Shown: positions 4,277 to 63,433, numbered from the stretch's first letter. The stretch: DNA of 64,000 nucleotides from a virus (UHGV-1374997); one strand, 5' to 3'. The notes: generated from the sequence alone by a model not told the origin. Program-made: numbers and translations.

Positions 4277-4277
4277 A

Positions 4278-4937
4278 ATGGCAAGAGTTACTAAGCGCGT
4301 TATTTTCAAGGCTTCTATTTCTTATCCTCATCTTTCTGCGCCCGTAGTCAATCCCAATGATAAGAACAAAGACCCCCAGTATAGCATTGAAGCGCGCATT
4401 CCCAAGAGCGACGTAGACACGATTAAGAAAGTGCGCTCCGTGCTTGAGGAAGTTTATACCGAGGGTGCTGGCCCGGATAAGAAGAAGTGGAAAGTTGATT
4501 TTCGTGAGCCCGGCTTTTTTGATACGTATCTGTCGAAGCAAGGCAAGGATGGTTTCCCTCTTCGAGACGGCAAGTATAAGCCGAGCGGCGATTGCGACGA
4601 TATTGTTTTCATGAGCGTCAAAAACAAGTATCCTATTGCTCTGGGCGTAAAGACTGGCCCCACGACTTATCGGAAGCTCGAATCGAAAGAAGAAATCGAA
4701 AAGGAACTTTACGCTGGTTGTATCGCCGATGTCATCATGGACGTTTACTATAATGACAGGCCCGGCACTGAACCCGGATGCTTCCTTTCCCTCAAGGGTG
4801 TCGTAAAGACTGGTGAAGGACAGCGTCTTGCCGGAAGCTCTCCCGTCGACCTTGGCGAACTCTATGGCACCGAAGAAAATAACGATGTAACCTACGGTGG
4901 CTCGGAAGATTCTTCCTCCGATGATTTGCCGTTCTAA
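4278..4937 (+). CDS. DUF2815-like phage ssDNA-binding protein
   Basis: N-terminal pattern MARVTKRVIFKASISYPHL fits DUF2815. Sits between the DUF2800 nuclease and PolA, as in other phages. Confidence 0.55.
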   Translation: MARVTKRVIFKASISYPHLSAPVVNPNDKNKDPQYSIEARIPKSDVDTIKKVRSVLEEVYTEGAGPDKKKWKVDFREPGFFDTYLSKQGKDGFPLRDGKYKPSGDCDDIVFMSVKNKYPIALGVKTGPTTYRKLESKEEIEKELYAGCIADVIMDVYYNDRPGTEPGCFLSLKGVVKTGEGQRLAGSSPVDLGELYGTEENNDVTYGGSEDSSSDDLPF

Positions 4938-5529: not shown

Positions 5530-5594
5530 AAAGTTCTTGACATGGAAAGCATAATTTAATAGGTTGTAAAAAAACATCAACAAGGAGAGAAAAT

Positions 5595-9036: not shown

Positions 9037-9049
9037 TCTAAAAAATCTA

Positions 9050-9096
9050 TTGACATTTGCTTCCGGTTAAAGAATACTCCATTCATCGGAAGCAAA
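9050..9096 (+). promoter_or_regulatory. TTGACA-17-AATACT promoter-like element overlapping a hairpin (tttgcttccg/cggaagcaaa)
   Basis: Lies in the intergenic region upstream of rtcB. Confidence 0.3.
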
Positions 9097-9123
9097 CATT
9101 TTAGAAAGAAGGAGTGTAAGAGA

Positions 9124-10305
9124 ATGTTTGAGGTAAAAGGATCAGTAAGTACAGCTAAGGTTTTCACAGATTATGTGGAGCCGACCGCGTTATCTCAGAT
9201 TATTGAATTATGTAATCAGGAGTTCACCGAAGGAAGTAAAATCCGTATCATGCCTGATGTACATGCTGGCGCTGGATGTGTTATCGGAACGACGATGACC
9301 ATTGAAAACAAGAAAATCGTTCCTAATCTTGTCGGAGTTGATATCGGATGCGGGTTGACATCAGCGCGATATGGTGGTTATGAATTGGGTTTCCTGCAAG
9401 AATATGAAAAAGAAGAAGGCGTATGGGTAAATGATTTTTTAAAAGAATTTGATAGGTTGATTCGGGCAAATATTCCTATGGGCACGAATGTTTGCGAAAA
9501 GTTAATGTACCATCCATTTAGGACACGAATAAAAGAATTGATTTGCGCTAAAAATGTAAATATTGAAAGGGGATATCATAGTATTGGGACTCTTGGTGGT
9601 GGAAATCATTTTATTGAAGTTGGATGCGATATCTTCTCTGAAAATAAAGGGCCTATAGGAGAATTGCGTAGAGATTTTTATATCACGGTTCATTCCGGAT
9701 CTCGTGGTATCGGAAAAGAAGTAGCTACTTATTATCAAAAAATTGCGGAAGAACAATGTAAGGGTGTACCCAAGCATTTAGCGTATTTATCCGGGCAAGC
9801 ATTTGAAGACTATATTCACGATATGCAGATTATGCAGGAATACGCTTCTATCAACCGTGATTGTATAATCGAAAAAGTAACTATGGATTGCGCTTTAATC
9901 GCTCCCTTTCCGGATAGTTACGAAGAAACAATTCATAATTATGTAGAGATTGGAGAAAAGATTATTCTTCGCAAAGGTGCAATTTCCGCGAAAAAAGATG
10001 AAAAAGTTATGATCCCATTAAACATGCGGGATGGTATCATAATCGGAAAAGGTAAGGGCCTTGAGGATTGGAATGAATCCGCGCCTCATGGTGCCGGGCG
10101 CGTACTTAGTCGAGGACAAGCTAAACGGCAATTGTCTGTAGATATTTTCAAGGATCAAATGGAAGGAATCTATTCAACCTGCATAAACGACTCGACGTTG
10201 GATGAAAGCCCTTCCGCATATAAGAGTTCCGATGAGATTTGTAATCATCTCGATTCCGTAGAAATTGTCGGAAGGACTAAACCTATCTATAACATTAAAG
10301 CATAA
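9124..10305 (+). CDS. rtcB: RtcB-family RNA 3'-phosphate ligase
   Basis: IRIMPDVHAGAGCVIGTTMT matches the RtcB metal-binding motif MPDVH.G.G. Size and further His-containing motifs (GGGNHFIE, HSGSRG, HNYV) are consistent. Confidence 0.75.
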   Translation: MFEVKGSVSTAKVFTDYVEPTALSQIIELCNQEFTEGSKIRIMPDVHAGAGCVIGTTMTIENKKIVPNLVGVDIGCGLTSARYGGYELGFLQEYEKEEGVWVNDFLKEFDRLIRANIPMGTNVCEKLMYHPFRTRIKELICAKNVNIERGYHSIGTLGGGNHFIEVGCDIFSENKGPIGELRRDFYITVHSGSRGIGKEVATYYQKIAEEQCKGVPKHLAYLSGQAFEDYIHDMQIMQEYASINRDCIIEKVTMDCALIAPFPDSYEETIHNYVEIGEKIILRKGAISAKKDEKVMIPLNMRDGIIIGKGKGLEDWNESAPHGAGRVLSRGQAKRQLSVDIFKDQMEGIYSTCINDSTLDESPSAYKSSDEICNHLDSVEIVGRTKPIYNIKA

Positions 10306-25004: not shown

Positions 25005-25592
25005 TTGGAGGTGTACATGGCTTTTAATGTACAACAACTCCCGCTCAAACTTCTCTCTGAAATTTCATTTCAAATAGAGACGGAGGGTGCGAAAGTCCTT
25101 ACGGGCTTTTCTAATGCGCTCCGTCTTGAGATGATAAAAAATGCTAAAAGTGTCCCCCTTTCCAAGAACCCTTGGTACGTAACGCCCAATGAAAATTTTA
25201 GAGAAACGCCATTTGTCCGTCCATCAAAAAGAATACCGAAAAAAGCCAAACTTGTTGACGCTGGAGCTTGGTATGCACACTTTCTTGAATACGGTACGGA
25301 GCCCCATGTTGTCAAGGGAAAAAGAAGTCCTAAAAAATGGATGCGATATGAAGACAAACTTGGCGTACCTCCCGGTATAGTATTCAGAGATCCAGCTACG
25401 AAAGAAATTATCAGATTTACGGAAAGAAGTAAAGTAGACGGAAAAGTCTACGTTTTTTCAAAAAAAGAAGAGCATGGCATTCCCGGTAAATCCACGCCAA
25501 ACCCTTTTCAACCTGCGGGATATGTGCGTAAAACTGCGGACTCAGCCGAAAAAGTGCTTGAAAAATATTTGTCCACGGAAGAGGGATCTTAA
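25005..25592 (+). CDS. HK97 gp10-family phage protein
   Basis: AKVLTGFSNALRLEM...GAWYAHFLEYGTEPH matches the gp10 family pattern TG.L..S...YA.YVEYGT. Confidence 0.45.
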   Translation: MEVYMAFNVQQLPLKLLSEISFQIETEGAKVLTGFSNALRLEMIKNAKSVPLSKNPWYVTPNENFRETPFVRPSKRIPKKAKLVDAGAWYAHFLEYGTEPHVVKGKRSPKKWMRYEDKLGVPPGIVFRDPATKEIIRFTERSKVDGKVYVFSKKEEHGIPGKSTPNPFQPAGYVRKTADSAEKVLEKYLSTEEGS

Positions 25593-28500
25593 TGGCGACT
25601 AAAAGACTCACACGGCTAGTTATTCCGGTGGAGCTTGACGATAGTAAAACAGCAAGCACTCTCACCAATCTTAAAGAAGTAATCACTCAAACAAGCCAGC
25701 AAATTTCTCGGAGCATGGAGAAAGCCCTGCCCGTTGCTGATATTACTAATGCTTCTATAAATATTATCAGGTCAATCGGAAGTATTCAAGCGTCCGCCAA
25801 AACCGCCGCCGCAGGAATTAAAAGTGAGACTGATAAAATTGGGAACGCTCTGCAAGGTGCTTTCGGCGTAGATGCGACGAAAGCGTCTTCTATGATGCAA
25901 AAATTCCTTGAGATGCGCGGTGTTGAAAGGGCGGTAACTCAGTTAAAACGGATGCAGCGTGAGTATGGGCTTACATCCGCCGAAGCTATTGAGTTTGCGA
26001 AAAGCATCAATGCGTCTGACGAGGTTCTTCGTCGATTTGCTGACACTCAGGAACGCACAAAACAGGGTGGTAGAGGCGTTTCCGGGCTTCTTACGCCGTA
26101 TTCCCTTACTTCTGGTGTTCAAGCCGCAGCGGGCGCTGTAGGTGTTTCTTTCGGTATGTACGGAATGGTCGAGCTTACCAAGTCCGTATTTAACGCTACC
26201 ACCGCTCTTGATAGCTTACAGCTTTCTTTCAAGTCGATTTACGGAGAATCCGCAGTAGCCGAGCAATCCCTCGGATTTGTACGTAAAGTAAGTGATGAAC
26301 TTGGATTGTCTTTTATCGACACTGCGCAAGCTGCAAAAGCTCTGTTCGCTTCCGCGAAAGGCACTGTCTTAGAAAACGACGCTCAGATGATTTTTAAAAG
26401 CTTCTCCCAGATGGGCGTTGCGCTTAAACTCACTGGCGAACAGATGGATTCCGTGTTCCTCGCTATCTCTCAGATGATTTCTAAGGGTAAGGTCAGCGCG
26501 GAAGAACTTAGATTACAGCTTTCTGAAAGAATGCCCGGTGCAGTGAATCTTTTTGCGAAAGCTATTGGAGTGACCACAAAACAACTTGACGATATGCTCC
26601 AAAAAGGCGAAGTTGGACTTGAACATCTTCGTACCTTTGCGGAAGAAGTCGGAAAGACGTATGCTAAGGGAGCGGAAGAAGCTTCTCACGGTTTACAAGC
26701 CGAGCTTAACAGGTTGGCTACTGCATGGTTTGACCTCAAATCCGCAATGATGGATTCCGAGGGCGCGGCAGCTTTTATTCGTGTACTTACGGAAATTACG
26801 AAATTCATTGGGCAGAACATTGATTCAATAATGAATTTCGTAAAGTGGCTTGGAATCGTATATGCGACGCTTAAAGTCACTACGGCTTTCGGTGTTGCGG
26901 TAGATGCGCTCAAGAATCTCAGAACTGCTTTCACGCTGACAGGAGTAGCCGCAGCAGAAGCGTCCGGCATAATGAAAGCCGCGCAAGCCGTAATCGCTAA
27001 ATTCGCACTTGCTTTTAACGCCAATCCTATCGCACTTACTGTCACCGCGCTAGTCGCTGTAGGTACTGCGGCATACGCTCTTAGCAACCAGATGTCTGAC
27101 TCCGAAAAGTTTATTTCCGGATATGCCAAGAGCTTCGACGAGATTGCCAGTAAGTCTGAAAAGGCTGCGGCAAGCCAGAACAATCTTTCAAATTCCAATA
27201 AACGACTCCAAGAACAATATCTTAGCGGTGAATACGTAAAGCGCCAGATGGACTTTATCCAAGCCCTTCAAGAGCTTCCTAACGTATTCTCTTCTACTAA
27301 GGTGATTAGTTTTTTTGATTCCATACTCGGGCCTCTTTCCGATACTGATTCAGAAGCTCTCTTTACATTAAGAAGTCAAGCCGTTAAGCTTGCTAAAGAG
27401 ACTCGTGATGCTATTGATAAAGCATTAAACGAAGAAACCGACCCGAAAGCCAGAGATGAAATGATTAAGAACACTCTTGATCGTTTCAAGATCATGTTCC
27501 GTACTATCAAAGATGGCATGAAAGAAGCTGGTGCATCTGACGAAGTTATTAAGCAATGGGACAATTTCGGTGGGGCCATTCTCAATGCGAAAGATACCGC
27601 AGATGCAGCTAAAGCGGCGTTGGAAGCGCTCACCGGAGAAGCGAACAAAAGCGGAAACAGCATAGCTAAATTCGCGGAAGCCTATGAAGCTATTCGTAAA
27701 GGAACAAAGACCACAGAATTTGGCAAGCAGCTTGCCGGGCAGGAAGACTTCGAGGCTCAGATTCGCGGACTTCTCCAGATGTCCGAAGCTCAAGAGCAAC
27801 TAGAGAGCAAGACTCGGAATCTCCTCGCAGCATATACCGAACAGCAGAACGCCAATACTTTGACCGAAGAAAAGATGAGAGAGCTTGAATCAGCTTTTGA
27901 TTCTATGTCTAGTCAGTCCGGTCAACTTGACAATGCTTTCCGGCTTGTAGCTGAGGCGGCAGTATCCTCTGGAGCGGACGCTTCTACTCTCGATTCAATT
28001 ATTGAAAAACTTGGGGAGACTTTCCATCTTTCATCTCAGGATATTGACGAGTTTAGAACAAAACTAAATTCTGCGTTGTCTGTTGCGGCACTCCAATCTG
28101 CGGAACAAAAACTCGCTGCTATTGAAGGTAAATTAGCAACAGTAGGGAGTAAGACCTCTCGTGCTGCTTTGACTACCCTTTCATCAATGAAAGAACTTCA
28201 AAAAGGGCAGGAGAAACAGATATTAGAAGCTATAGAATCCGGCGATTTTACGAATCTCCTTAATGCACAAGGAAATAAAATAGCCGAAGATGTAGCTAAA
28301 GTTTATAAAGAAATTGCGGAAAAATCCGAAGCTCTTGTTACTGCGGAAGAGGCTAATCGCAAAGCAAAAAGAGACGCAAATAAAAAGCCAAAGAAAATCC
28401 CTGAATTTGATATTGAAGGATTTGATGTTCGCGTACAGAAGTTATTTGGAACCGAAACGAACTTCGCAAAAATTGTTGAAGCCGAAATTGAAAAATTAAA

Positions 28501-29692
28501 CGCTTCACTGGCTACACATAAACTTGATATTAAAAAAGTCGCGGAAATCTATAAAGACGAGCTTCCTGATGGATTACATTCCGTTGCCGAGGCGCAAGAG
28601 TTCCTGAGCAACAAGCTCAAAGAAGGATTGTTCGCCAAGCAAGCGGAAAAAGAAAAGAAAGCCGTCGATGATCTTCGTGAAAAATTGATGGACTTTGAAA
28701 GGGCTTATTCTGAAATCGTTTCGGGCGATAAGGGTGAAGCCGCACTTAAATCCTATGAAAAGCAATCTAAGCAATGGAAAGACACTGCTGAGAAGCTCTA
28801 TAGGTCTATATCTAATTCCGCATTTTCTTCCGCAGAAGAAAGAATTGCTGCTGAACAAGAATATGCTGATACGGTTGCCCGTATTGATGAATGGATGGCG
28901 GAACAGAGAATCCGTACTTCTGGTGGTGTTTTAGATAATCTGAAACTCGGTATCAAAGACTACTATGATCAGCACAAGAACTATGCTCTTGGATTGGGTG
29001 AAGTAGTAACATCTACCACAGATAGTATGGCAGCCGCCTTATCTGATTTTGTGGTAGGAGGTATGCGAGACTTTAAGTCCTTCGGAGAGGCATTTGATAG
29101 CTTGGTCAATGACATGATCAGAAGCCTGTCAAAATTGCTTGCGCAACAGCTTATGTCCGGCATTCTCCAATCTGCGCTTGGCCTCTTCACCGGAGGTATT
29201 GGCGGTGGAGGCGGTGCCGATAATGCGGTTTCATTCTCGTCTTGGTTCGGCGGTATTAATAGAAAAGCCAATGGTGGCGTGATGACTGGAATTTCTGGTC
29301 ATAGCAATTCGATAGTAACTTCACCGACTCTTTTCTCTTACGGAAAAGAAATCAGCCAGTATGCCAATGGTGCTGGATTGATGGGAGAAGCTGGACCCGA
29401 AGCTATTATGCCTTTGACGAGAACAAGCTCAGGTAAACTCGGCGTCATTTCTAAACGAGAAAATGAGTCGAGCCGACCCACATCTTCTTCATCTTCCGAG
29501 GTGTTTGTAAATGTTTATAACTCTACTGGTCAAAAGGCACAAACCAAACAAACTCAGAATGCAAATGGGTCAAAAAGCATAGATGTTATAATTGGTGATG
29601 TCGCCGCACAGCAGATGCTTACTCCCGGCACCAAAGCCAATTATGCTATCAGAACTCAAACCGGGGCTACTCCCCCGACGATTAAGCGGTGA
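25592..29692 (+). CDS. tail tape measure protein
   Basis: 1366 aa. Has a TP901-family TMP core (SAEELRLQLSERMPGAVNLFAKAIGVTTKQLDDMLQKGEV), coiled-coil Ala-rich stretches and a Gly-rich C-terminal part. Confidence 0.9.
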   Translation: MATKRLTRLVIPVELDDSKTASTLTNLKEVITQTSQQISRSMEKALPVADITNASINIIRSIGSIQASAKTAAAGIKSETDKIGNALQGAFGVDATKASSMMQKFLEMRGVERAVTQLKRMQREYGLTSAEAIEFAKSINASDEVLRRFADTQERTKQGGRGVSGLLTPYSLTSGVQAAAGAVGVSFGMYGMVELTKSVFNATTALDSLQLSFKSIYGESAVAEQSLGFVRKVSDELGLSFIDTAQAAKALFASAKGTVLENDAQMIFKSFSQMGVALKLTGEQMDSVFLAISQMISKGKVSAEELRLQLSERMPGAVNLFAKAIGVTTKQLDDMLQKGEVGLEHLRTFAEEVGKTYAKGAEEASHGLQAELNRLATAWFDLKSAMMDSEGAAAFIRVLTEITKFIGQNIDSIMNFVKWLGIVYATLKVTTAFGVAVDALKNLRTAFTLTGVAAAEASGIMKAAQAVIAKFALAFNANPIALTVTALVAVGTAAYALSNQMSDSEKFISGYAKSFDEIASKSEKAAASQNNLSNSNKRLQEQYLSGEYVKRQMDFIQALQELPNVFSSTKVISFFDSILGPLSDTDSEALFTLRSQAVKLAKETRDAIDKALNEETDPKARDEMIKNTLDRFKIMFRTIKDGMKEAGASDEVIKQWDNFGGAILNAKDTADAAKAALEALTGEANKSGNSIAKFAEAYEAIRKGTKTTEFGKQLAGQEDFEAQIRGLLQMSEAQEQLESKTRNLLAAYTEQQNANTLTEEKMRELESAFDSMSSQSGQLDNAFRLVAEAAVSSGADASTLDSIIEKLGETFHLSSQDIDEFRTKLNSALSVAALQSAEQKLAAIEGKLATVGSKTSRAALTTLSSMKELQKGQEKQILEAIESGDFTNLLNAQGNKIAEDVAKVYKEIAEKSEALVTAEEANRKAKRDANKKPKKIPEFDIEGFDVRVQKLFGTETNFAKIVEAEIEKLNASLATHKLDIKKVAEIYKDELPDGLHSVAEAQEFLSNKLKEGLFAKQAEKEKKAVDDLREKLMDFERAYSEIVSGDKGEAALKSYEKQSKQWKDTAEKLYRSISNSAFSSAEERIAAEQEYADTVARIDEWMAEQRIRTSGGVLDNLKLGIKDYYDQHKNYALGLGEVVTSTTDSMAAALSDFVVGGMRDFKSFGEAFDSLVNDMIRSLSKLLAQQLMSGILQSALGLFTGGIGGGGGADNAVSFSSWFGGINRKANGGVMTGISGHSNSIVTSPTLFSYGKEISQYANGAGLMGEAGPEAIMPLTRTSSGKLGVISKRENESSRPTSSSSSEVFVNVYNSTGQKAQTKQTQNANGSKSIDVIIGDVAAQQMLTPGTKANYAIRTQTGATPPTIKR

Positions 29693-29696
29693 TTAT

Positions 29697-30083
29697 ATGA
29701 GTATTACTTGGCCCGCAGATCTTCCTCAAGTACCCTTCGCAGACGGAGGGTACTCCGAATCAATGCCGTCCAACCTTCTTGTGTCTACTATGGATACAGG
29801 TCCGAGTAAAGTTAGACGGAGGGGAAGCGCGACTCCCGGAAAAATGAATGTATCTTTTAAAATGACTACGGCAGCTACTAAAAAATTAGAAACCTTTATC
29901 CGAACAATTCTTGGCGGTGGGGCAAAAGCCTTTGAATTTCCTCATCCTAGACTTGACAAAAATGTAAAAGTACGTATAATGCCGAAGTCGGACACGGAAT
30001 TGTATGAAATAAATTTCATCGCTCCCGGCCTATGGAAAGTAGATTTTACCTTTGAGGTTTTTTACGATGCCCCTCTCGCCTAG
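29697..30083 (+). CDS. minor tail protein (lambda M-like position)
   Basis: Start reassigned to the ATG just after the tape measure stop. Small protein at the head of the tail tip operon. Confidence 0.4.
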   Translation: MSITWPADLPQVPFADGGYSESMPSNLLVSTMDTGPSKVRRRGSATPGKMNVSFKMTTAATKKLETFIRTILGGGAKAFEFPHPRLDKNVKVRIMPKSDTELYEINFIAPGLWKVDFTFEVFYDAPLA

Positions 30084-30588
30084 TACGGTGGCGTCGATGA
30101 TGGCGCAGGAAACGGATAACGCCGACATAGTTCTTTTGACAATTACGCATCCAAGCTGGACGGAACCTATTTATCTATCGTCCGACCCTACGGTTTTTCT
30201 TAGGAATGATACGGAAACTAATCTTCCTATCTACGGAACGATATCCCGTGGCAAAGAATTTCTTTATATTCCCATGAGAGCTATTGCCCCGGACTCCAGA
30301 CAAGAGACACCTCCTGAATGCAAAATTTCAATCGACAATGTTTCTCGGTATATAGCACCGTATCTTGTTAAAACAGATCGACGCACTCCTAAAGTAACTT
30401 TTGAAATAGTTACCACCGCTTTTCCGGATATTGTTGATACTGTGTATCCGGAATTTGATTTATCTTCCGTAACAATCAACGCCCAAACTGTAGATGCCAG
30501 CATTTCCTTGAATACGGCTTCTCAAGAGCCCGTGCCGTGGCTTAGATTTGTGCAAGCATACTTTTACAGTCTTTTTTATAATGGATAA
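30052..30588 (+). CDS. minor tail protein (lambda L-like position)
   Basis: 178 aa between the M-like gene and (after the IS insertion) the K-like NlpC/P60 gene. Confidence 0.4.
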   Translation: MRFFTMPLSPSTVASMMAQETDNADIVLLTITHPSWTEPIYLSSDPTVFLRNDTETNLPIYGTISRGKEFLYIPMRAIAPDSRQETPPECKISIDNVSRYIAPYLVKTDRRTPKVTFEIVTTAFPDIVDTVYPEFDLSSVTINAQTVDASISLNTASQEPVPWLRFVQAYFYSLFYNG

Positions 30589-30599
30589 GGCGCACCTTG

Positions 30600-31895
30600 A
30601 CCGGAATTTTTACTCTGAAAGTATCTCTTAACATTTCCCTATAAACTGAGTATAATTTAATCATGAAAAGAATGCAAGCATATAAATTCCAGTTACGTCC
30701 TAAAGCCAAGCAAGCAAATCTCATGTTGGGTTTTGCCGGATGCTGTCGCTTTGTATGGAATAAGGCGCTTGCATTAGAGAAAGAAACCTATCAAGAGGAG
30801 GGCAAACGTCTTGGGTATTATAAACTTGCTGGTTTGCTCAAAGATTGGAAAAAGGAAGAAGAAACATCTTTTCTTGCTAGAGCACACTCTCAGATATTGC
30901 AGCAGGTACTAAAAGATCTTGATCGGGCTTACAAAAATTTTTTTGAGAAGCGTGCGGATTTTCCACGATTCAAGAAGAAGGGTGCCCACAATACCTTTCG
31001 ATATCCGCAAGGCTTCAAGTTGGATGAAGGAAATAGTCGCGTTTATCTTCCCAAAATAGGTTGGGTGCGTTACAGAAAAAGCAGGGCTATAGAAGGGACG
31101 CTAAAGCAAGTAGCGGTTTCTCTTTCTGCCGGAGAGTGGTATGTCTCCATCCTGACTGAGAGGGAAGTAGTTGAACATATCCATCCCTCTCAAAGCTCTA
31201 TTGGTATTGATATGGGTGTTGCCCATTTTGCAATGCTCTCTGATGGAAGCACAATTGAACCGTTGAACAGCTTTCGCAAATATGAAAAGAAGTTGGCAAA
31301 ACTGCAACGCAAACAAGCGAGATGCAAAAAGTTTTCCGCCAACTGGCAAAAGGTCAAATCACGCATTCAACGCTTGCACCTCCACATAGCTAATGCTCGC
31401 AAGGACTTTTTGCACAAGGCAAGCACAATGATTAGCAAAAACCACGCTGTTGTTGTACTTGAAGACTTGAAAGTGCGGAATATGTCCAGCTCAAAGACCG
31501 GAGGAAAACGCAAGTCAGGATTGAATAAATCTATATTGGATCAAGGGTGGTTTGAGTTCCGGCGGCAACTGTCTTACAAGCTGGCATGGATGGGTGGATC
31601 TTTGACCGCAATTCCTCCTCAGTATACCAGCCAGACCTGTAGCCGTTGCGGATGTGTAGATAAACAAAACAGACAAACGCAAGCCAAGTTTAAATGTATA
31701 GCTTGCGGATTTGAGATTAACGCCGATCACAATGCGGCGTTGAATATCTTGGCGGCAGGGCTTGCCGTTACAGCCTGTGGAGCGGGAAAGGCTCAAGCGC
31801 CCGCGTTGAATCAGGAACCCGCCTATAGTTTGGCCTAATTGGGCTTTACTGATAGGAATCCCTTGTTTGTAAGAATAAGGGAGGATGCCAAAACG
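30600..31895 (+). mobile_element. IS200/IS605-family TnpB-only element, copy 1
   Basis: Left end lies near ctgaaag (30615). Right end is taattgggctttactgataggaatccc + hairpin + gggaggatgccaaa. No tnpA. Inserted between the L-like and K-like tail genes. Confidence 0.7.
30663..31838 (+). CDS. tnpB: TnpB (OrfB_IS605) RuvC-like RNA-guided nuclease
   Basis: RuvC-I IGIDMGV, RuvC-II VVLEDL, Zn finger CSRCGC...CIACG, RuvC-III NADHNAALNI. 391 aa. Confidence 0.9.
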   Translation: MKRMQAYKFQLRPKAKQANLMLGFAGCCRFVWNKALALEKETYQEEGKRLGYYKLAGLLKDWKKEEETSFLARAHSQILQQVLKDLDRAYKNFFEKRADFPRFKKKGAHNTFRYPQGFKLDEGNSRVYLPKIGWVRYRKSRAIEGTLKQVAVSLSAGEWYVSILTEREVVEHIHPSQSSIGIDMGVAHFAMLSDGSTIEPLNSFRKYEKKLAKLQRKQARCKKFSANWQKVKSRIQRLHLHIANARKDFLHKASTMISKNHAVVVLEDLKVRNMSSSKTGGKRKSGLNKSILDQGWFEFRRQLSYKLAWMGGSLTAIPPQYTSQTCSRCGCVDKQNRQTQAKFKCIACGFEINADHNAALNILAAGLAVTACGAGKAQAPALNQEPAYSLA

Positions 31896-32042
31896 GATAA
31901 AATATGAAAATGAGAGACAAATTTTCAAAATACACAGTAATCCTCCAACTTTAGGCTGGACAGGATGCCAAAACGGATAAAACATGAAAATGAGAGACAA
32001 GTTTTCAAAATACATAGGAATCCCTTTTGTGGATCACGGAAT
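31883..32042 (+). repeat. tandem direct repeat, 2 x 80 bp (about 60 bp conserved)
   Basis: ggatgccaaaacggataaaa(t/c)atgaaaatgagagacaa(a/g)ttttcaaaataca... at 31883 and 31963. The second copy holds the real RBS and start of the NlpC/P60 gene. Confidence 0.8.
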
Positions 32043-32403
32043 AACTTCCGAAGGCTGTGATTGCTACGGCCTTGTGCTTCTCGTGTATAAAGAGGAGCTT
32101 GGCATTGATCTTCCGTGGCTCGGGGATTCCTATTCTCATGCGTATCGTAGAAAAGACGTAAACTCCACGGTAAAAAAGAACATTGATCTTGGTTGCTATA
32201 TAGACGTTACGAATGAGCCTCGCAAACCTCTTGATATTATTATTTTTAGGACTGGAGGTCTTGAAACACATATCGGACTTTGGGTTGAGGATGGATGGCT
32301 TTTGGACATACTTGAAGGGGCGCATAGTACGATTCGTAGGTACGATACGTCCGAATGGAAAAACAGAATTACGAGAATTTTGAGGCACGTAGATGCGCGG
32401 TAA
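31984..32403 (+). CDS. NlpC/P60-family peptidase, lambda K-like tail tip protein
   Basis: Cys-His catalytic motifs CDCYGLV and HIGLW. Confidence 0.65.
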   Translation: MKMRDKFSKYIGIPFVDHGITSEGCDCYGLVLLVYKEELGIDLPWLGDSYSHAYRRKDVNSTVKKNIDLGCYIDVTNEPRKPLDIIIFRTGGLETHIGLWVEDGWLLDILEGAHSTIRRYDTSEWKNRITRILRHVDAR

Positions 32404-35400
32404 AGCAATGAAAAAGCGAGCCTCTCGTAAAAGAGGGGAAATCACAGTTCTTGGTCGGCATTGGGCAAGTTCGTCTCGTGTCTCGCTCACAGTCCAAGAA
32501 GGACAATCCCTTGAAAACATCATCACAGACTCCGTAAAAATTCTTCGGGCTAACCAAGCTATTACTCCTGCATATGCTGAATATCTAAAGAAGCATTGTG
32601 TTTGCCGTGTGGATTTTATCAATATCCCTAAAGAAAAATGGGCCGTCACCTATCCTGTGGATGGTCAGCGTGTCGAATTTTTCATTAAGCCCGGTAAAGG
32701 TGGCGGTAAAAATCCTTTTGCTACAATCCTTAACATTGTTGTAGCTGTCGCTGCTATCGCAGTGCCCGTACTTGCTCCGGCTTCATGGGGGTTGATGACA
32801 GCGGCGGGAGCCTTGACTTGGACTGGTGCCGCAGTAAGTTTTGGTATCTTAACGGTTGGCTCACTCGCTGTCAATATGCTTTGCCCTCCTGCAACGCCTA
32901 AACTTAGCGGACCTAAATCTTCCGAAAAAGAATCTCCTACCTATTCAATCTCCGGAGCAAGAAATGGAGCGAATCCCTATGGTTTTGTTCCGCTTATCTT
33001 CGGAAGGAATAAGGTCACTCCTCCTTTGGCAGCGAAATCTTGGACAAATATTGAATCGGATAAAACCTATTTCAATATGTGCGTTATCTGGGGGCACCCA
33101 GATATGTCCGTAAGAGATTTTAAAATTGGGGATACGCCTTTAGAAAACTTTAAAAATATTGACCACAGATTCCATCCTTCTACCACTGGTGAAGGGCTTG
33201 TCTATTTTGGCAAATCCTTTAATGAAGAAACCGTGGGGACTTTAATCTCGAAAGAAGCTGGATATATTACTCGGACAATGGGAGAATGCGATACAATCAG
33301 CTTAGACATTACGTTCTCCAAAGGGCTGACTTCCATCAATGAAAAAAATGGAGATAACTATGATCGTACCGTTGAGTTTGAAGCTGAATATAAATTAAAG
33401 AATGATACGGTATGGAAAGGACTTGTCGGGGGGTCATTCCCTATTCGTGGGACATCTATCGAGCTTAAAAGAAAAACTGGCTTTTATTTAAACGCCGGAA
33501 GAAACTCTATTGTCTATAGTGATTTTTCTGGTAATATCAATATGGCTGATGGAGAAACAGCTCCAGTTAATACCGTTCCATTAGCAAAAGTTATTCTTGT
33601 ATCAACTCCTCATTATGAATTTGATGATGATGGAAGACAGCGGGTAACATATACATATTCATATACTTGCGAAGACTTGCGGGTAAGTTCTGTATCCGGT
33701 GCCGCTCCATATATTAATGAAGTAAAACATTATACGAAAAAATGCGGATATGGACTTGGAAGCAGATGGGGATATACTTGCGTCGAAGTTTATGATTATT
33801 CGACTTATGAAATTGTCATTCCTGACCAATATGTGAATGGCATTAACAAATTTGCCATCTCTGGACAGCAATTAAAGCCCTTGACCCGTACTTATACTGT
33901 GAATGTTCCTCACGGAGATTACGATGTTCGTATTCGAAGACTTACTGATGATAATTCAAATAAGTATATCTATGATGAAGCTACGTGGGCGACGAAAAGG
34001 GCTATTGTAAATCGTCAATCTTTTTCAACTCCTGTTCCCGTATGTGTTTCTGAATTGCGTATTCAGGCATCGGAACAGCTTTCTGGATACGTCGATAACT
34101 TTAATGCTATTTGCACGGCATTGATTCCAGACTTTAACACTAGCAATAATACGTGGGAATGGAGAGAAACGAGAAATCCCGCATCCGCTTATAGATACGC
34201 ATTGACCTCCCGTCACGCTTTGAATACGCCCTATACGGAAGATAAACTCGACGAACCGACATTGCGGGAGTTCCATAAATATTGTACCCGAATGGGTTGG
34301 ACTTTCGACTTTGTTTGTGATACAGAAGAAAATCTGTGGTCACGTCTTACCCAGATAGCTGCGGCAGCACGCGCTTCCGTAAGTACGGAGATAGATGGAA
34401 AGTATGGTGTAGTAATCGACGATAAGGATAAGGTACCTGTGCAGCAGTTCAACCAGCGTAATAGTTGGGGGTTCAGCATGGAAAAACTTTTCCCTAACGT
34501 CCCTCACGCGCTCAGAATCAAATTTGTTAACAGTGAAAATAATTTCCTGCAATCGGAGGATTTCTGCTATGCGGACGGATTTGATAAAAACAATGCCACG
34601 GATATTCAAGAAATTGATTTTCCCGGCATTACTACGTGGACAAACAACTGGAAGCAAGGAAGATATCATTTAGCCTCACAGCTTCTTCGTCCTTTAAGCG
34701 TTACAATCAATGCTGATTGGGAGCACAGAATGTGTCATCGCGGAGACGTTATTGAAATTTTCCATGACGTTCTCATGAACACTTTCGGGGCGGCTCGTGT
34801 TGTAGGGTTGATTTATCAGGATACGGAAGGGGCGGAATACATTGTTTATGAAAACTCCGAAAGGCCCATTGATACTCCTGCTGTAGGCGTCGTTCTTGAC
34901 GATTCCATTGTTTTTAGTGAACGAGATGTACTTTATGGTATTGCAATCAGAAATCCATATGGAAAGACGGTCACATATCAAATTAGACCCGAATTTGGAG
35001 AAGAGCATTCCTATATCTATTTCACTTTTGCAATATCATATGCTACTACTCCCTATATTGGAGATTTAGCTAGCGTATCATTAATGGGCGAGGCGAATGA
35101 TAAATACCTCGTAACTCAGATTGCCCCCGCTGAAAATTCCTCGGCGGAAATTAAGGCGATTCCATATTCTCCCGAAGTCCTCGACGCGGATAAAGGAGAA
35201 ATTCCTCCTTGGAATCCTCCTATTATCATTGATAAATTGCCTACCTATACTATCCCCAATCCTACTATTATACAGATAATTTCCGATGAGTCCATGCTCG
35301 TTAAGATTGGGCAGAATATCATTCCTCAAGTCGGTATCTGGTTTAAAGTTGGGGATGGAACCTCGTTAGATTGTGTGGTTTATGCTCGTGCAAAGAAAAC

Positions 35401-43925: not shown

Positions 43926-45205
43926 TGGCATATGCTCCGCGTACCAGCAAAGGTCTTCGATTTTTCCGGGGAACAGGGACAGACCTTGCAACGACATCAT
44001 GGCAGATAATTAATGGTATTTCGGATTGGGCGGCCCCAACACCCACCATCCAATCTATCGATATGACGACGATTAAGGATGAAGCCACTGTATACGCTCC
44101 CGGAATCCGAGAGAGTGGAAGCTCATCTATGACCCTGTATTTTGATGATTTGAATACGATCCACCAGAATCTTTTGATTGCCGATAGTAAATCTGCGGTC
44201 AATATTCCTTATCGTATTGATTTTACAGAAACGGGAACTAGCGTAGCTTTCATGGGGCATCCGACATCCGTTCCAGTATCCGGTTCTGTAGGGTCTGCAA
44301 ATTCAGCAGCTATCACTTTCTACGTTTCAGGCGACCCTGTGTGGGCTTTCGGTTCGGGAAGCAGCCCTGAGCTTGACCCTTCCCAATTTCCGGAATCCAT
44401 AAAAGAAAGATTCGTTATTGTTACCAATGAAGCCGCGATGCTTTCCTTAACAATCACTGATATCCAAAATGGCGATTCAGTGATTGTCAAAGAGCCAAAG
44501 CCTCTTATGTATGCTGTAATCGATGACGGCGCGCTTGGTACAATGGCGGCATTTTATGCGTATCAGTCAAAATCCGATTGGAGTCTTCTTTCCAGCATCC
44601 CCGCCGCATTTAAACCTTCCGCACATGCAGATGAAAGCGCGACATACGGATTAGCAACAACAACTCTGTATGGTCATGCAAAAATAACGACAACTACGCC
44701 AAAAGCTCTTGGCGTAGCCAATATAGGTTCGGAAGACGCATTCGCTAGAGGCGACCATGTTCATCCTGTTCAAAAAGATGTATCAGGGAATGCCGCGACA
44801 GCTACGCAATGGGAAACTCCTAGGACATTCTATATTTCCGGAGTATATAAAGCAGAAGCTATTGTTAATGGAACCCAAAATATAGATTTCGCGTTGGAAA
44901 GAAATATCCAAAGTTTGTCTTCTGGCGCAGGAAACGTTTCTGTTGAATTAATTCCTTCCGTAACCCACATCGTTACAGTGGACCGCGCTTTTACCGTAAC
45001 GCTTCCAGCGGGATTACAATCTGATAAATTCTATGAGTTTCATGCTATACTTAAAGCCGCGAATGCCTCCGCCGCATTAACGATTTCCGAACCTATCCAA
45101 TGGGAAAACAATACGCCTCCTTCTTTGATCGAAAATAAAGTTACTGAAATTCAAATACAAATCTATGGCAATATAAAAATTGGAACATACCGCATATTCA
45201 GTTGA
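43925..45205 (+). CDS. major-tail-protein-like N-terminal domain fused to C-terminal domain (fibre/knob-like)
   Basis: The first 145 aa are paralogous to the major tail protein at 23218 (MAYAPRTSKGLRFFRGTG... versus MAVSYQARTSKGLKFYRGTG...). The C-terminal 280 aa are unrelated. Confidence 0.55.
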   Translation: MAYAPRTSKGLRFFRGTGTDLATTSWQIINGISDWAAPTPTIQSIDMTTIKDEATVYAPGIRESGSSSMTLYFDDLNTIHQNLLIADSKSAVNIPYRIDFTETGTSVAFMGHPTSVPVSGSVGSANSAAITFYVSGDPVWAFGSGSSPELDPSQFPESIKERFVIVTNEAAMLSLTITDIQNGDSVIVKEPKPLMYAVIDDGALGTMAAFYAYQSKSDWSLLSSIPAAFKPSAHADESATYGLATTTLYGHAKITTTTPKALGVANIGSEDAFARGDHVHPVQKDVSGNAATATQWETPRTFYISGVYKAEAIVNGTQNIDFALERNIQSLSSGAGNVSVELIPSVTHIVTVDRAFTVTLPAGLQSDKFYEFHAILKAANASAALTISEPIQWENNTPPSLIENKVTEIQIQIYGNIKIGTYRIFS

Positions 45206-45213
45206 TTTTAACC

Positions 45214-46493
45214 CTGAAAGCACTTCTTGACATTTTCTTACAAACAAGCTATGGTTTAAGCCATGAAAAGAATGCAAGCATATAAATTCCAGCTCCGCCC
45301 CAAAGCCAAGCAAGCAAATCTCATGTTGGGTTTTGCCGGATGCTGTCGCTTTGTCTGGAATAAGGCGCTTGCATTGGAGAAAGAAACCTATCAAGCGGAG
45401 GGCAAACGTCTTGGGTTTTATAACCTTTGTAAGGCCCTCCGCGATTGGAAAAAGGAAGAAGAAACATCTTTTCTTGCTGGAGCACACTCTCAGATATTGC
45501 AGTTTGTATTGAAGGATCTTGATCAGGCTTACAAAAATTTCTTTGAGAAGCGTGCAAATTTCCCACGATTCAAGAAGAAGGGTGTCCACAATACCTTTCG
45601 TTATCCGCAAGGCTTCAAGTTGGATGAAGGAAATAGCCGCATTTATCTTCCCAAAATAGGTTGGGTGCGTTACAGAAAAAGCAGGGTCATAGAAGGGACG
45701 CCAAAGCAAGTAGCGGTTTCTCTTTCTGCCGGAGAGTGGTATGTCTCCATCCTGACTGAGAGGGAAGTAGTTGAACATATCCATCCCTCTCAAAGCTCTA
45801 TTGGTATTGATATGGGTGTTGCCCATTTTGCAATGCTCTCTGATGGAAGCACAATTGAACCGTTGAACAGCTTTCGCAAATATGAAAAGAAGTTGGCAAA
45901 ACTGCAACGCAAACAAGCGAGATGCAAAAAGTTTTCCGCCAACTGGCAAAAGGTCAAATCACGCATTCAACGCTTGCACCTCCACATAGCTAATGCTCGC
46001 AAGGACTTTTTGCACAAGGCAAGCACAATGATTAGCAAAAACCACGCTGTTGTTGTACTTGAAGACTTGAAAGTGCGGAATATGTCCAGCTCAAAGACCG
46101 GAGGAAAACGCAAGTCAGGATTGAATAAATCTATATTGGATCAAGGGTGGTTTGAGTTCCGGCGGCAACTGTCTTACAAGCTGGCATGGATGGGTGGATC
46201 TTTGACCGCAATTCCTCCTCAGTATACCAGCCAGACCTGTAGCCGTTGCGGATGTGTAGATAAACAAAACAGACAAACGCAAGCCAAGTTTAAATGTATA
46301 GCTTGCGGATTTGAGATTAACGCCGATCACAATGCGGCGTTGAATATCTTGGCGGCAGGGCTTGCCGTTACAGCCTGTGGAGCGGGAAAGGCTCAAGCGC
46401 CCGCGTTGAATCAGGAACCCGCCTATAGTTTGGCCTAATTGGGCTTTACTGATAGGAATCCCCCGCTTTTAGGCGGGGGAGGATGTCAAATAA
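45214..46493 (+). mobile_element. IS200/IS605-family TnpB-only element, copy 2
   Basis: Left end cctgaaagcacttcttgacatttt. Right end taattgggctttactgataggaatccc + ccgcttttaggcgggg hairpin + gaggatgtcaaataa. Confidence 0.7.
45263..46438 (+). CDS. tnpB: TnpB (OrfB_IS605) RuvC-like RNA-guided nuclease
   Basis: 391 aa. The C-terminal 230 aa are identical to copy 1. The N-terminal region matches copy 3. Confidence 0.9.
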   Translation: MKRMQAYKFQLRPKAKQANLMLGFAGCCRFVWNKALALEKETYQAEGKRLGFYNLCKALRDWKKEEETSFLAGAHSQILQFVLKDLDQAYKNFFEKRANFPRFKKKGVHNTFRYPQGFKLDEGNSRIYLPKIGWVRYRKSRVIEGTPKQVAVSLSAGEWYVSILTEREVVEHIHPSQSSIGIDMGVAHFAMLSDGSTIEPLNSFRKYEKKLAKLQRKQARCKKFSANWQKVKSRIQRLHLHIANARKDFLHKASTMISKNHAVVVLEDLKVRNMSSSKTGGKRKSGLNKSILDQGWFEFRRQLSYKLAWMGGSLTAIPPQYTSQTCSRCGCVDKQNRQTQAKFKCIACGFEINADHNAALNILAAGLAVTACGAGKAQAPALNQEPAYSLA

Positions 46494-54107: not shown

Positions 54108-55375
54108 TTATTTGACATCCTCCCCCGCCTAAAGTCGGGGGATTCCTATCAGTAAGGCCCAATTAGACCAAACTATAGGCGGGTTCCTGATTCAACGCGG
54201 GCGCTTGAGCCCTTCCCGCTCCACAGGCTGTAACGGCAAGCCCTGCCGCCAAAATGTTCAACGCCGCATTGTGATCAGCGTTAAATTCAAATCCGCAAGC
54301 TGTACATTTAAATTTGGCTTGCGTTTGTCTGTTTTGTTTATCCACACATCCGCAACGGCTACAGGTCTGGCTGGTATACTGAGGAGGGATTGCGACCAAA
54401 GATCCACCCAACCATGCCAGCTTGTATGTCAACTGCCGCCGGAACTCAAACCACCCTTGATCCAATATAGACTTATTCAAACCTGACTTGCGTTTTCCTC
54501 CTGCCTTTGAGCTGGACATATTCCGCACTTTCAAGTCCTCAAGCACAACAACAGCGTGGTTTTTGCTAATCATTGTGCTTGTCTTGTGCAGAAAGTCCTT
54601 GCGAGCATTAGCTATGTGGAGGTGCAAGCGTTGAATGCGTGATTTGATCTTTTGCCAGTTGGAGGAAAACTTTTTGCATCTTGCTTGTTTGCGTTGCAGT
54701 TTTGCCAACTTCTTTTCATATTTGCGAAAGCTATTCAACGGTTCAATTGTGTTTCCATCAGAGAGCGTTGCAAAATGAGCAACACCCATATCAATACCAA
54801 TAAAACTTTTAGACGGATGAATAGGCTCCGGAGCTTCACGCTCTGTCAGAATGGATACATACCATTCTCCAGCAGAAAGAGAAACCGCTACTTGCTTGAG
54901 AGTCCCTTTTATAGCCCGGCTTTTTCTGTAACGCACCCAACCTATTTTGGGAAGATAAACGCGGCTATTTCCTTCATCCAACTTGAAGCCTTGCGGATAG
55001 CGAAAGGTGTTGTGAGCACCTTTCTTCTTGAATTGAGGGAAATTTGCACGCTTCTCAAAGAAATTTTTGTAAGCCTGATCAAGATCCTTCAATACAAACT
55101 GCAATATCTGAGAGTGCGCTCCAGCAAGAAAAGATGTTTCTTCTTCCTTTTTCCAATCACGGAGGGCCTTACAAAGGTTATAAAACCCAAGCCGTTTTCC
55201 CTCCGCTTGATATGTTTCTTTCTCCAATGCAAGCGCCTTATTCCAGACGAAACGGCAGCACCCGGCAAAACTCAACATGAGATTTGCTTGTTTGGCTTTA
55301 GGACGTAACTGGAATTTGTATGCTTGCATTCTTTTCATGGCTTAAATTATACTCAGTTTATAGGTAAATGTCAAG
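54108..55375 (-). mobile_element. IS200/IS605-family TnpB-only element, copy 3 (inverted)
   Basis: The right end matches copy 2 through gggggaggatgtcaaataa. The left end carries a 68-bp copy-specific segment with a G9 tract. Beyond that, 55443-55476 matches the upstream flank of copy 1. Confidence 0.7.
54163..55338 (-). CDS. tnpB: TnpB (OrfB_IS605) RuvC-like RNA-guided nuclease
   Basis: 391 aa. Motifs IGIDMGV, VVLEDL, CSRCGC...CTACG and NADHNAALNI are intact. About 93% identical to copies 1 and 2. Confidence 0.9.
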   Translation of the reverse strand: MKRMQAYKFQLRPKAKQANLMLSFAGCCRFVWNKALALEKETYQAEGKRLGFYNLCKALRDWKKEEETSFLAGAHSQILQFVLKDLDQAYKNFFEKRANFPQFKKKGAHNTFRYPQGFKLDEGNSRVYLPKIGWVRYRKSRAIKGTLKQVAVSLSAGEWYVSILTEREAPEPIHPSKSFIGIDMGVAHFATLSDGNTIEPLNSFRKYEKKLAKLQRKQARCKKFSSNWQKIKSRIQRLHLHIANARKDFLHKTSTMISKNHAVVVLEDLKVRNMSSSKAGGKRKSGLNKSILDQGWFEFRRQLTYKLAWLGGSLVAIPPQYTSQTCSRCGCVDKQNRQTQAKFKCTACGFEFNADHNAALNILAAGLAVTACGAGRAQAPALNQEPAYSLV

Positions 55376-55559
55376 TTATTTTTTTTTCGGGATAGGGGGG
55401 GGGGTTATCGCAAGTCTTTATAGTCTATTATTCATGAGTAAAGGCAAAAATTCCAGTTAAGGTGCGCCTTATATCCTCCCCCTAAAGAGAGAGAGAGGTT
55501 TTACGGCGCGTCCGATAAAAAGCATATAATGTGGCTTACGAAATTATTATTCATGGATT

Positions 55560-60965: not shown

Positions 60966-61943
60966 TTAGATATCAAAAACAATTTCAGCCATATCAAAGT
61001 ACAGGTAATCACTATAAGTAATAGCTCCGTTACTATTCTCTGTCGCGGAGATTGCGCGTCTCCGAATTTCCGAGATTACCCTAGACAGTTCCGTAATACT
61101 TCTATCCTGATAGGCGTCCGCAAGTTCATGCAAAAGCTGCCTACGGCTCACTGCGTAGGAGCATTCCGTGCTTCTGACAAAAAGATCTCTCTGACTTTCA
61201 GCGGTAAACGCCACAGGTACAGTCTTGCGTCGCGTAAAAACGCCCTTGTAAAAAATAATCTTTTCTTCTTTCACCATGAAAGCATAGTAGCATCGAACAG
61301 GGGATTCCTTAGTTTCCTGCGCAATATCCTCCTGAGTATTAACTTCCTGTGTATGAGCTTCTCTCTGGATGTTAGCTTCTCTCTGGATGTTAGCTTCTCT
61401 CTGCATAGTAGCTTCCTCCTTTTCCTTTACATACAACTTAAGTTTATCCCAATCGTCAGCAGTGATTTCTGAGCACAACTTATTATCTCCAAAAGGGCAC
61501 TCAACATCCTTATTTACGAGAGGACACGTATTGTAGCCGTAGAGAATTTTATTATTACATTGTCTGGCAAGATCTTCAACCAAATTTTCTTCAAACAAAG
61601 ATTTATAAGAATCTATGCCTTCATCAAGAAAACTGGAGTCAATGAGAGGAAAAGGTGCTTCGACCTTCTTCGGCTGGTCTTCATGTTCTACGCTTTTCAA
61701 TTTATTATCCTCCTTTTTTTCTACCATAGCTCTCACCTCGCTCCAATGACTTTCATCTACGTTACCACACATAGCCTTGAGCGGGCATCGACCTTCTTTT
61801 GCATCTGGGCAGACTGCATATACCGTGCAACGCCTGGATGATGTTCTACAAAGATGAGCTAGCTCTTTATCCGTCTTTCTACTTAAAATGAGAGTAAAAA
61901 GTTCTTTCCTTCGCTCTACGTTCCTCTGATAAATATTTGACAT
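60966..61943 (-). CDS. hypothetical Cys-rich protein with internal 18-bp tandem repeats (REANIQ x3)
   Basis: Contains CPDAKEGRCPLKAMCGN and CPLVNKDVECPFGDNKLC. The tandem repeat ttctctctggatgttagc x3 lies around 61360-61415. Confidence 0.45.
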   Translation of the reverse strand: MSNIYQRNVERRKELFTLILSRKTDKELAHLCRTSSRRCTVYAVCPDAKEGRCPLKAMCGNVDESHWSEVRAMVEKKEDNKLKSVEHEDQPKKVEAPFPLIDSSFLDEGIDSYKSLFEENLVEDLARQCNNKILYGYNTCPLVNKDVECPFGDNKLCSEITADDWDKLKLYVKEKEEATMQREANIQREANIQREAHTQEVNTQEDIAQETKESPVRCYYAFMVKEEKIIFYKGVFTRRKTVPVAFTAESQRDLFVRSTECSYAVSRRQLLHELADAYQDRSITELSRVISEIRRRAISATENSNGAITYSDYLYFDMAEIVFDI

Positions 61944-63336: not shown

Positions 63337-63433
63337 TACCTCATCTCCTTGTGTTAAGATCAACCTACCCTACTTTGAGTTTTCATGCAACAAAATTTTC
63401 TATTTTATGAAAAAATTTTAGCTCCGAAAATAC

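Follow-up and report, generated by a model that had tools for sequence, protein, structure and literature searches.

In the 64,000-nucleotide (nt) stretch of DNA from virus UHGV-1374997 analysed here (the window), an insertion sequence (IS) of the TnpB-only IS200/IS605 type lies between two tail genes at 30589..31891, and a tandem duplication with an 80-bp period takes in its right end and the adjoining target. The duplication is likely to be a short-homology recombination scar, formed at the junction between the right end of the element and its target, and is probably without function: it looks like an ordinary kind of thing that leaves the downstream tail gene K intact, rather than a working device. 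The element itself, referred to below as IS copy 1, is a previously undescribed, phage-borne member of IS200/IS605. The structure is known from a single contig, Ga0495776_018387, of the Joint Genome Institute metagenome 3300045988. IS copy 1, the repeat units and the two flanking tail genes all lie on the plus strand.

A repeat search of the window recovered a direct repeat of 62 nt with 94% identity and a period of 80, pairing 31882-31943 with 31962-32023, and no other repeat of such kind in the 64 kb. This bears out the duplication that a preliminary description of the sequence had placed after the IS. Tandem Repeats Finder missed the repeat, which is too short for it, at less than two full copies, and too unevenly diverged, with the divergence in the 5′ part of the unit. 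The preliminary description had also let the repeat begin just past the IS end and had treated its units as target sequence only, and here the anatomy proves different. The IS ends at 31891, so the conserved repeat takes in the last 10 nt of the element, and each unit holds right-end sequence; the thing duplicated is the junction of right end and target. The true unit, ~80-82 nt in length, joins the last 38-40 nt of the right end to 42 nt of flank from the target and is present twice: as a right-end terminus with its flank in unit I (31852-31933, 82 nt), and as a right-end remnant with its flank in unit II (31934-32013, 80 nt).

The ends of the element were defined from the three copies in the window, from related phages (L021-L029) and from Desulfovibrionaceae genomes (L202-L208). 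The right end invariably runs to ..GGAGGATG(T/C)CAA, with divergence straight after, in at least eight independent contexts, and the right end of copy 1 is therefore placed at 31891; it is complete, finishing ..GGAGGATGCCAA with GGATGCCAA as its last letters. The (T/C)CAA is cleavage-site-like and lies 10 nt beyond the subterminal hairpin, which is found at the right end of all copies. In IS608, too, the cleavage site of the right end lies 10 nt past a subterminal hairpin. A full left end has the layout C..GCGCCGTAAAA.., a hairpin and then GGATATAAGGCGCACC, and in nine of nine independent contexts TTAT stands directly before it, which therefore makes TTAT the insertion motif and the likely target-adjacent motif (TAM). 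Insertion takes place 3′ of this fixed motif of 4-5 nt, with neither target-site duplication nor terminal inverted repeats. A right end at ..ATAA, with ATAA or TAA as the motif, was ruled out by the eight or more flanks ending in (T/C)CAA and by the nine left ends with TTAT.

The 5′ part of unit I (31852..31891) is the functional right-end terminus, in which ATAGGAATCC is followed by a 10-bp hairpin, CCCTTGTTTG..AAGAATAAGGG, and by AGGATGCCAA. Its 3′ part (31892..31933) is a 42-nt flank that contains the putative guide-encoding segment AACGGATAAAATATGAAAAT together with a pseudo-copy of the K start, and carries alleles of the type seen in the IS-less relative L009. The truncated pseudo-start that had been ascribed to this unit is present: an ATG at 31904 opens a 16-codon open reading frame (ORF; 31904..31954), read from the sequence as MKMRDKFSKYTVILQL*, which closes with the TAG at 31952-31954, 29 nt before the K ATG. 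Unit II opens with a decayed right-end remnant, ACAGTAATCC-TCCAACTTTAGGCTGGAC-AGGATGCCAA (31934..31971), and continues into a 42-nt native flank (31972..32013) of the L002/5/7 allele, where the real start of K is found at 31984, again as described. Read downstream from the IS, the order at the junction is AAATAC, then ACAGTAATCCTCC..GGATGCCAA, then AACGG.

What looks like a spacer between the units (31934-31961) forms, with the head of unit II, a degenerate copy of the right-end terminus of 38 nt. The remnant at 31934-31971, ACAGTAATCCTCCAACTTTAGGCTGGACAGGATGCCAA, is identical to the common right-end terminus, ATAGGAATCCCCCGACTTTAGGCGGGGGAGGATGTCAA, at 30 of 38 positions, and the two align without gaps at equal length. 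Folding separates the remnant from its intact counterparts: intact right ends reach minimum free energies of -13.9 (copy 1, z -3.2) and -14.1 kcal/mol, the remnant -7.0 (z -0.09), and the remnant hairpin is lost. The remnant derives from the common, GC-rich hairpin type, of which the pairing has gone. Its sequence was found nowhere else in the window or in IMG/VR, the window holds no further right-end remnants that we could find, and a search for an IS variant whose genuine right end bears the remnant hairpin (CTCCAACTTTAGGCTGGA) returned 0 matches.

The boundaries of the units are marked by one short motif, ATAGGAATCC at 31852, its degenerate form ACAGTAATCC at 31934, and ATAGGAATCC once more at 32014, within codons 11-14 of K. 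The identity between the IS and K that had been pointed out before is real and longer than stated: the 13-nt ATAGGAATCCCTT occurs in the right end at 31852-31864 and in K at 32014-32026, where it supplies the codons for IGIPF, forms the right boundary of the duplication and is present in all IS-less relatives. Among 300 shuffled flanks none reached an identity of 13 nt and 8 reached 11. All right ends examined contain ATAGGAATCC, two of the bacterial ones with a single substitution. The units are thus bounded by a short direct repeat that already existed in the unduplicated parents, in the right ends on the one hand and in the K gene of all IS-less relatives on the other, and an A-x-A′-x′-A layout bounded by a pre-existing short repeat is characteristic of ectopic short-homology recombination or template switching.

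Comparison with phages that lack the element shows what the site looked like before. Nine phages from the same metagenome (L001-L009), with K proteins 96-100% identical to that of the window, have neither the IS nor the duplication at the site. Alignment with them reconstructs an empty site in which TTTTTTAT runs directly into AAYGGATAAAAYATG...; with its variable positions it reads ..CAGTCTTTTTTAT followed by AA(C/T)GGATAAAA(C/T)ATGAAAATGAGAGACAA(G/A)TTTTCAAAATA(C/T)ATAGGAATCCCTTTTGTGG. The flank to the right of copy 1 (AACGGATAAAATATG..) is exactly what follows TTTAT in this empty site, and the right junction is therefore that of a canonical insertion between TTTAT and AACGG. In the window the TTTAT, the likely TAM and TnpA target, lies at 30575..30579; in the empty sites of all nine relatives it directly precedes AACGGATAA. 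INPHARED held no phage closely related to the region, and the exact junction pattern had 0 matches in IMG/VR. In the metagenome collection it had 21 matches, all of them due to chance, which is weak evidence given that this collection evidently lacks the contig of the window itself. An apparent right end followed by AACGGATAAAAC in L098 was dismissed, having no tnpB upstream.

These observations suggest a sequence of three steps. The comparison with empty sites shows that the IS entered 3′ of TTTAT, between ..TTTTTTAT and AACGGATAAAAYATG.., in the canonical geometry; this target reaches from the final codons of the preceding tail gene into the start of K. The anatomy then suggests that ATAGGAATCC(CTT) of the right end and codons 11-14 of K, 42 nt into the flank, came to share 11-13 nt by coincidence, and that ectopic short-homology recombination or template switching between both sites duplicated the intervening DNA. 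The outcome would have been two tandem units, each with a right-end terminus (hairpin plus AGGATGCCAA) followed by the 42-nt flank. A reciprocal product would have neither right-end hairpin nor guide segment and would lack the first ten K codons, which leaves the duplication as the only viable outcome. Finally, and in part visible in the alignments, the upstream right end has remained that of an intact IS with a stable hairpin, and the downstream copy is now a free remnant, its hairpin destroyed by changes at 8 of 38 positions. The preliminary description had already proposed an insertion-associated recombination between the IS end and its target. That part is supported, by nine IS-less relatives that are clean at the site and by an identity that falls exactly at the unit boundaries; the TAM and homing interpretation that it attached to unit II is wrong.

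The two differences between the units are not random drift, since they match alleles that occur naturally at the 5′ end of K: at flank positions 12 and 29, flank I shares its T and its A with L009, and flank II has the L002/5/7 sequence unchanged. Over the 200 nt that follow, K has 0 mismatches to L002/L005 and differs from L009 at 25 positions. Copy 1, too, is a mosaic: it agrees with copy 2 of the window over ~750 nt up to ATAGGAATCC, with 0 mismatches, and then continues into a hairpin like that of L025, a 10-bp AU-rich stem for which L025 is the only other site. In this copy-1/L025 subtype both arms of the terminal hairpin have changed together, and the terminal hairpin is conserved across copies. 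Given the differing natural alleles of the flanks and the mosaicism of copy 1, at least one step must have involved exchange between phage genomes or IS copies, not slippage on one molecule alone. Outside the identical tract (31100-31860 against 45700-46460, 100% identity), copies 1 and 2 differ by 5-15%, which indicates recent gene conversion within one genome, ending at ATAGGAATCC. On these comparisons the ATAGGAATCC motif has served as a breakpoint more than once, and the locus has been shaped by exchange between IS copies and between phage lineages.

The wider surroundings are mosaic as well. From 27579 to 33971, 3 kb to either side of the insertion site at 30579 and with IS copy 1 and unit I excluded, the window is a fine-scale mosaic of the nine relatives, in which stretches almost identical to one relative (0-2 mismatches per 200 nt) are interspersed with others that show 20-70. 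Such a fine mosaic around the tail genes would imply either intense recombination in the population or a strain-chimeric assembly.

Several points weigh against a recombination scar. The structure comes from one contig of one metagenome, and no intermediates, such as a simple insertion at this site or a solo remnant, were found. The remnant is 21% diverged, as against 0% between the adjoining flank and a natural allele, a gap that requires either an old event with a flank refreshed by recombination or an unsampled source IS. The remnant hairpin is like the common type and unlike that of copy 1, for which a one-step duplication in situ is insufficient. Lastly, the left junction, with 9 native nt kept and the left hairpin gone, requires a second, separate event.

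Known systems offer partial parallels. Tandem duplications flanked by microhomology, as formed by unequal exchange or template switching, share with this one a direct repeat that existed beforehand, here 11-13 nt in the IS right end and in K. Unlike in those cases, the units are unequally diverged (8 of 38 positions in the right-end part, allelic differences only in the flank) and their alleles come from different lineages, so the history involved more than one step. Solo-end remnants and PATE-type derivatives of IS200/IS605 likewise survive as end fragments without the coding part. In contrast to these, the remnant described here comprises only the last 38 nt of a right end, with no left end and a destroyed hairpin, and so is not mobilisable by the mechanism known for the family.

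The match of the guide to a site 80 bp downstream had been advanced as being in line with homing by TnpB. This match follows trivially from the duplication and comes without a TAM. Ahead of the second guide match, where a TAM-like motif might have been expected, stands the right-end terminus GGATGCCAA (GCCAA), not TTAT. Unit II does not qualify as a target. Its guide-matching sequence, AACGGATAAAACATG at 31972, has one mismatch, at guide position 12; both guide-matching copies in the window are preceded by GGATGCCAA and neither has the likely TAM, so the phage does not target itself. The empty sites are a different matter. In L001-L009, TTTAT is followed by a 20-nt match to the guide of copy 1 with 0-3 mismatches: 0 in L009, 1 in L002/5/7 (position 12), 2 in L001/3/4 and 3 in L006/8. 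For copy 2 the guide matches at 20/20 in all nine IS-less loci retrieved, preceded by TTAA(A), and for copy 3 TTAT plus a 20/20 match is present in all ten IS-less loci retrieved. This state of the phage population fits the logic of putative TnpB homing.

It is conceivable, if unlikely, that the duplication is a by-product of such homing, which would be a specific form of the short-homology recombination proposed above and not an alternative to it. TnpB of an IS-bearing phage would have cut the TTTAT and target of a co-infecting relative, repair would have copied the IS along with donor flank alleles, and one end would have been resolved aberrantly at the short homology of ATAGGAATCC, giving rise to the duplication. 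Matched target sites do exist in IS-less relatives from the same sample, as just described (L009 without mismatch, the sites of copies 2 and 3 perfect), the donor-like, L009-type alleles of flank I adjoin a recipient-like K, and most IS copies lack a usable left end, so that they would not move by TnpA excision. TnpB homing into co-infecting phages, non-restorative and with co-conversion of flanks, has been discussed as a possibility (PMC13565253). Activity of TnpB at this locus is nonetheless putative, the allele mosaic could also stem from ordinary phage recombination or from chimeric assembly, and standard repair copies one right end only, so that a remnant with a different hairpin needs an extra source. 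ISDra2 TnpB cuts ~15-21 nt from the TAM, and the boundary of the duplication, 42 nt from the TAM, does not fall there.

Comparable behaviour is known from phage homing endonucleases, such as T4 SegF and the td intron, with co-conversion of their flanks; as in those systems, a mobile nuclease gene sits between conserved phage genes, is polymorphic among co-occurring relatives and is adjoined by donor-type alleles. Unlike in SegF or td, specificity would reside in a guide RNA plus TTAT rather than in a protein. We regard it as improbable that the scar is the fossil trace of RNA-guided homing from one co-infecting phage into another. The corresponding picture, to which we give a similarly low weight, is one in which TnpB elements without left ends would persist and spread through guide RNAs that cut the TTAT-plus-target empty sites of relatives; just as doubtfully, repair would then copy the element with donor alleles, and aberrant resolution at a chance 13-nt identity would yield the duplicated junction. 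If so, phages would have preserved at this locus a natural trace of TnpB homing of the non-restorative kind, with co-conversion of markers.

The remaining explanations are less probable still. With a single contig from a metagenome of at least ten closely related phages, blockwise mosaic identity and units that carry the alleles of different strains, the contig may have merged reads of co-occurring strains, such that the tandem would not exist on one molecule. We nevertheless consider an assembly artefact or strain chimera quite unlikely: the remnant has a unique 28-nt core, ACAGTAATCCTCCAACTTTAGGCTGGAC, that must stem from real reads, and the junction between the K 5′ fragment and the right-end remnant must exist in some molecule, whatever lies upstream of it. 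Moreover, the longest exact word common to the units is 21 nt, and the final k-mers of assemblers are expected to be longer than this, so the repeat alone would leave the assembly path unambiguous. Two successive insertions at one site, an older IS with the common hairpin that was then mostly deleted and a newer one with the copy-1 hairpin, would account for a remnant of a different hairpin subtype, in a phage group where IS insertions are polymorphic and frequent (five occupied sites among the relatives). This is very unlikely, as TTAT would then precede the left end and give an IS-IS tandem, with no second 42-nt flank between; the K 5′ fragment between right end and remnant is left unexplained, the flank contains no TTAT, and the units are bounded exactly by ATAGGAATCC, not by TTAT.

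A functional element is as hard to credit. The duplicated leader and its 16-codon upstream ORF might tune translation of K, or the duplicate might act as a decoy for the guide RNA. In the relatives the K ATG follows the stop codon of the upstream gene at a distance of 3 nt, a spacing that suggests translational coupling, abolished by the IS; the 22 nt ahead of the pseudo-ORF are those found ahead of K, the pseudo-ORF stops 29 nt short of K, and there is no terminator from tnpB to K. Yet a simple insertion would give K the same upstream context, and no obvious gain comes from the duplication; for a decoy that lacks a TAM on DNA no role is known, and the arrangement has a single example. We see no evidence of a function for the duplication. 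The short-homology recombination scar accordingly remains the account that we favour.

The element that bears the scar is recognisable by its nuclease gene. tnpB (30663..31838, 391 amino acids) matches the Pfam families OrfB_IS605 (1.8e-25), Cas12f1-like_TNB (5.2e-23) and HTH_OrfB_IS605 (7.7e-16), as well as structures of ISDra2 TnpB (E=2.1e-58, residues 3-369), and the motifs GIDMG, LED and NADHN are visible in it; the product is a TnpB (OrfB) with RuvC-like and zinc-ribbon domains, and the element belongs with the TnpB-only, IS1341-like derivatives of IS200/IS605. The extent of the element was set by alignment of the three window copies with copies elsewhere. A promoter-like site ahead of the gene, TTAACA-17-TATAAT (30628..30656, 11/12, near-consensus), is kept in all phage copies, in the form TTGACA-17-TATAAT. 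Within the 3′ end of tnpB, a hairpin at 31774..31817 resembles Rfam RAGATH-18, though its score of 33.6 bits (E=4e-4) does not reach the gathering score, 44.9, and we read it as a piece of a putative guide-RNA scaffold. Copy 1 has no tnpA. In the Desulfovibrio/Mailhella relatives, at 75-76% identity, a divergent ORF starts directly upstream of tnpB, a presumed tnpA.

Elements with a guide RNA encoded at the right end, namely ISDra2 of Deinococcus radiodurans and IS608, are alike in their TnpB homologue, in insertion 3′ of a short motif, in the lack of inverted repeats and in a subterminal right-end hairpin, and the sequence just outside the right end matches the empty site beside the motif. 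They are unlike in that the likely TAM of the phage element is TTAT, not TTGAT or TTAC, and in that the phage copies have no tnpA and, except for copy 3, no left-end hairpin; guide RNA and nuclease are putative in the present case.

The nearest bacterial relatives of the TnpB, L202-L208 in gut Desulfovibrio and Mailhella, are 70-76% identical, most with a divergent ORF start upstream. They hint at the range of hosts and at where TnpA might be supplied from in trans. Two promoter-like sites of the phage (9033-9063 and 40304-40334) share the word TATTGACATTT with the tnpB promoter of the IS, CTTGACATTTACC..TATAAT, which occurs at 30628-30656, at 45228-45256 and, on the minus strand, upstream of 55338. 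The IS promoter may be adapted to, or derived from, phage promoters, and this similarity is where the left junction of L021 falls.

The left junction of copy 1 is irregular. The left end is truncated, starting with GGCGCACC at 30589, and its first ~46 nt including the left-end hairpin are missing. Between TTTAT and GGCGCACC lie 9 nt of native sequence, AATGGATAA (T allele, 30580..30588), which preserve the C-terminus YNG* of the upstream gene; beyond the right end of the IS these 9 nt occur twice more, as the C allele (AACGGATAA), at 31892-31900 and at 31972-31980. The arrangement resembles a target-site duplication of 9 bp (AAYGGATAA), a reading that was ruled out, as other copies have none and the alleles differ between sides. 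The simplest reading would be a secondary exchange at a short homology, in which the ..GGATAA of a genome lacking the IS recombined with the GGATATAA found ahead of GGCGCACC in a full left end. Copy 1 as it is now should no longer be open to excision by TnpA. Left-end hairpins are found in copy 3 and in bacterial and other viral copies, and are absent from copy 1, copy 2, L021-24 and L025.

The same pattern, a precise right junction with an irregular left one, recurs in every phage copy of the IS. Copy 2 (tnpB at 45263-46438, plus strand) lacks 12 native nt as well as a portion of its left end (45205-45262, 46489). In L021-24 (compared with window 5543-5558) the join falls at a common CTTGACAT, pairing the -35 of the native promoter with that of the IS promoter, and 16 native nt are replaced; in L025 (compared with window 9037-9154) 118 native nt are replaced, including a gene start. 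Copy 3 (tnpB at 54163-55338, minus strand) has a full left end after TTTAT and lacks 77 native nt up to a second ATTAT (54112; 55339-55500, minus strand). Left junctions tend towards short homologies, and the native 5 nt before the flank are TTTAT/ATTAT for copies 1/3, and CTTAA, TTTAA and GCTAA for copy 2, L021 and L025. IS-less relatives are rearranged exactly at the copy-2 target site: L116 carries a 35-nt tandem duplication, AATAGGAGCATACCGTATATTCGGATAATCTTAAA twice, that ends at a TAM-like TTAA (~4250-4325), L115 a different replacement of ~23 nt (~4270-4305), and L116, L117 and L120 an extra A between TTAA and the guide match. These rearrangements could reflect a hot spot or escape from cleavage.

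Gene calls and family searches place a siphovirus-like tail module over part of the window. The tape-measure gene (25592-29692) is followed by two small genes and then by the insertion. The upstream neighbour of IS copy 1, a tail gene in the position of lambda L (30097..30588), is supported by an ORF and a gene call, ends ..TTT TAT AAT GGA TAA, and matches DUF1833 of Pfam weakly (E=0.003, under the curated cut-off); its C-terminus is the same in IS-less relatives. On the other side of the IS stands the intact K-like NlpC/P60 gene (31984..32403; Pfam NLPC_P60, E=3e-10), whose protein is 100% identical in L001-L004 and whose native 22-nt upstream context and coding sequence are kept; a J-like gene of 1746 amino acids follows it. 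Near the right end of the window are two direct-repeat arrays, at 63418-63593 and 61347-61415, one of them with ~37-nt units, TTAGCT..CCCCACCT..CCAAAAATG, and the other with an 18-nt repeat, CTGGATGTTAGCTTCTCT, three times; these might be iteron-like or regulatory repeats.

Taken alone, the duplication is of little weight, as a neutral-looking scar that leaves a tail gene intact. It serves rather as a worked example in which empty sites made it possible to fix, for a phage-borne TnpB element not characterised before, the guide, the TTAT motif and the precise position of the right end, and it carries the lesson that a guide match without the motif should not count as a target. The main value lies in the population context: at least ten co-occurring phages in which TnpB insertions are polymorphic, with left ends eroded and right ends precise, and in which relatives that lack the IS retain intact targets. 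Such a population is a natural system for testing TnpB homing between phages.

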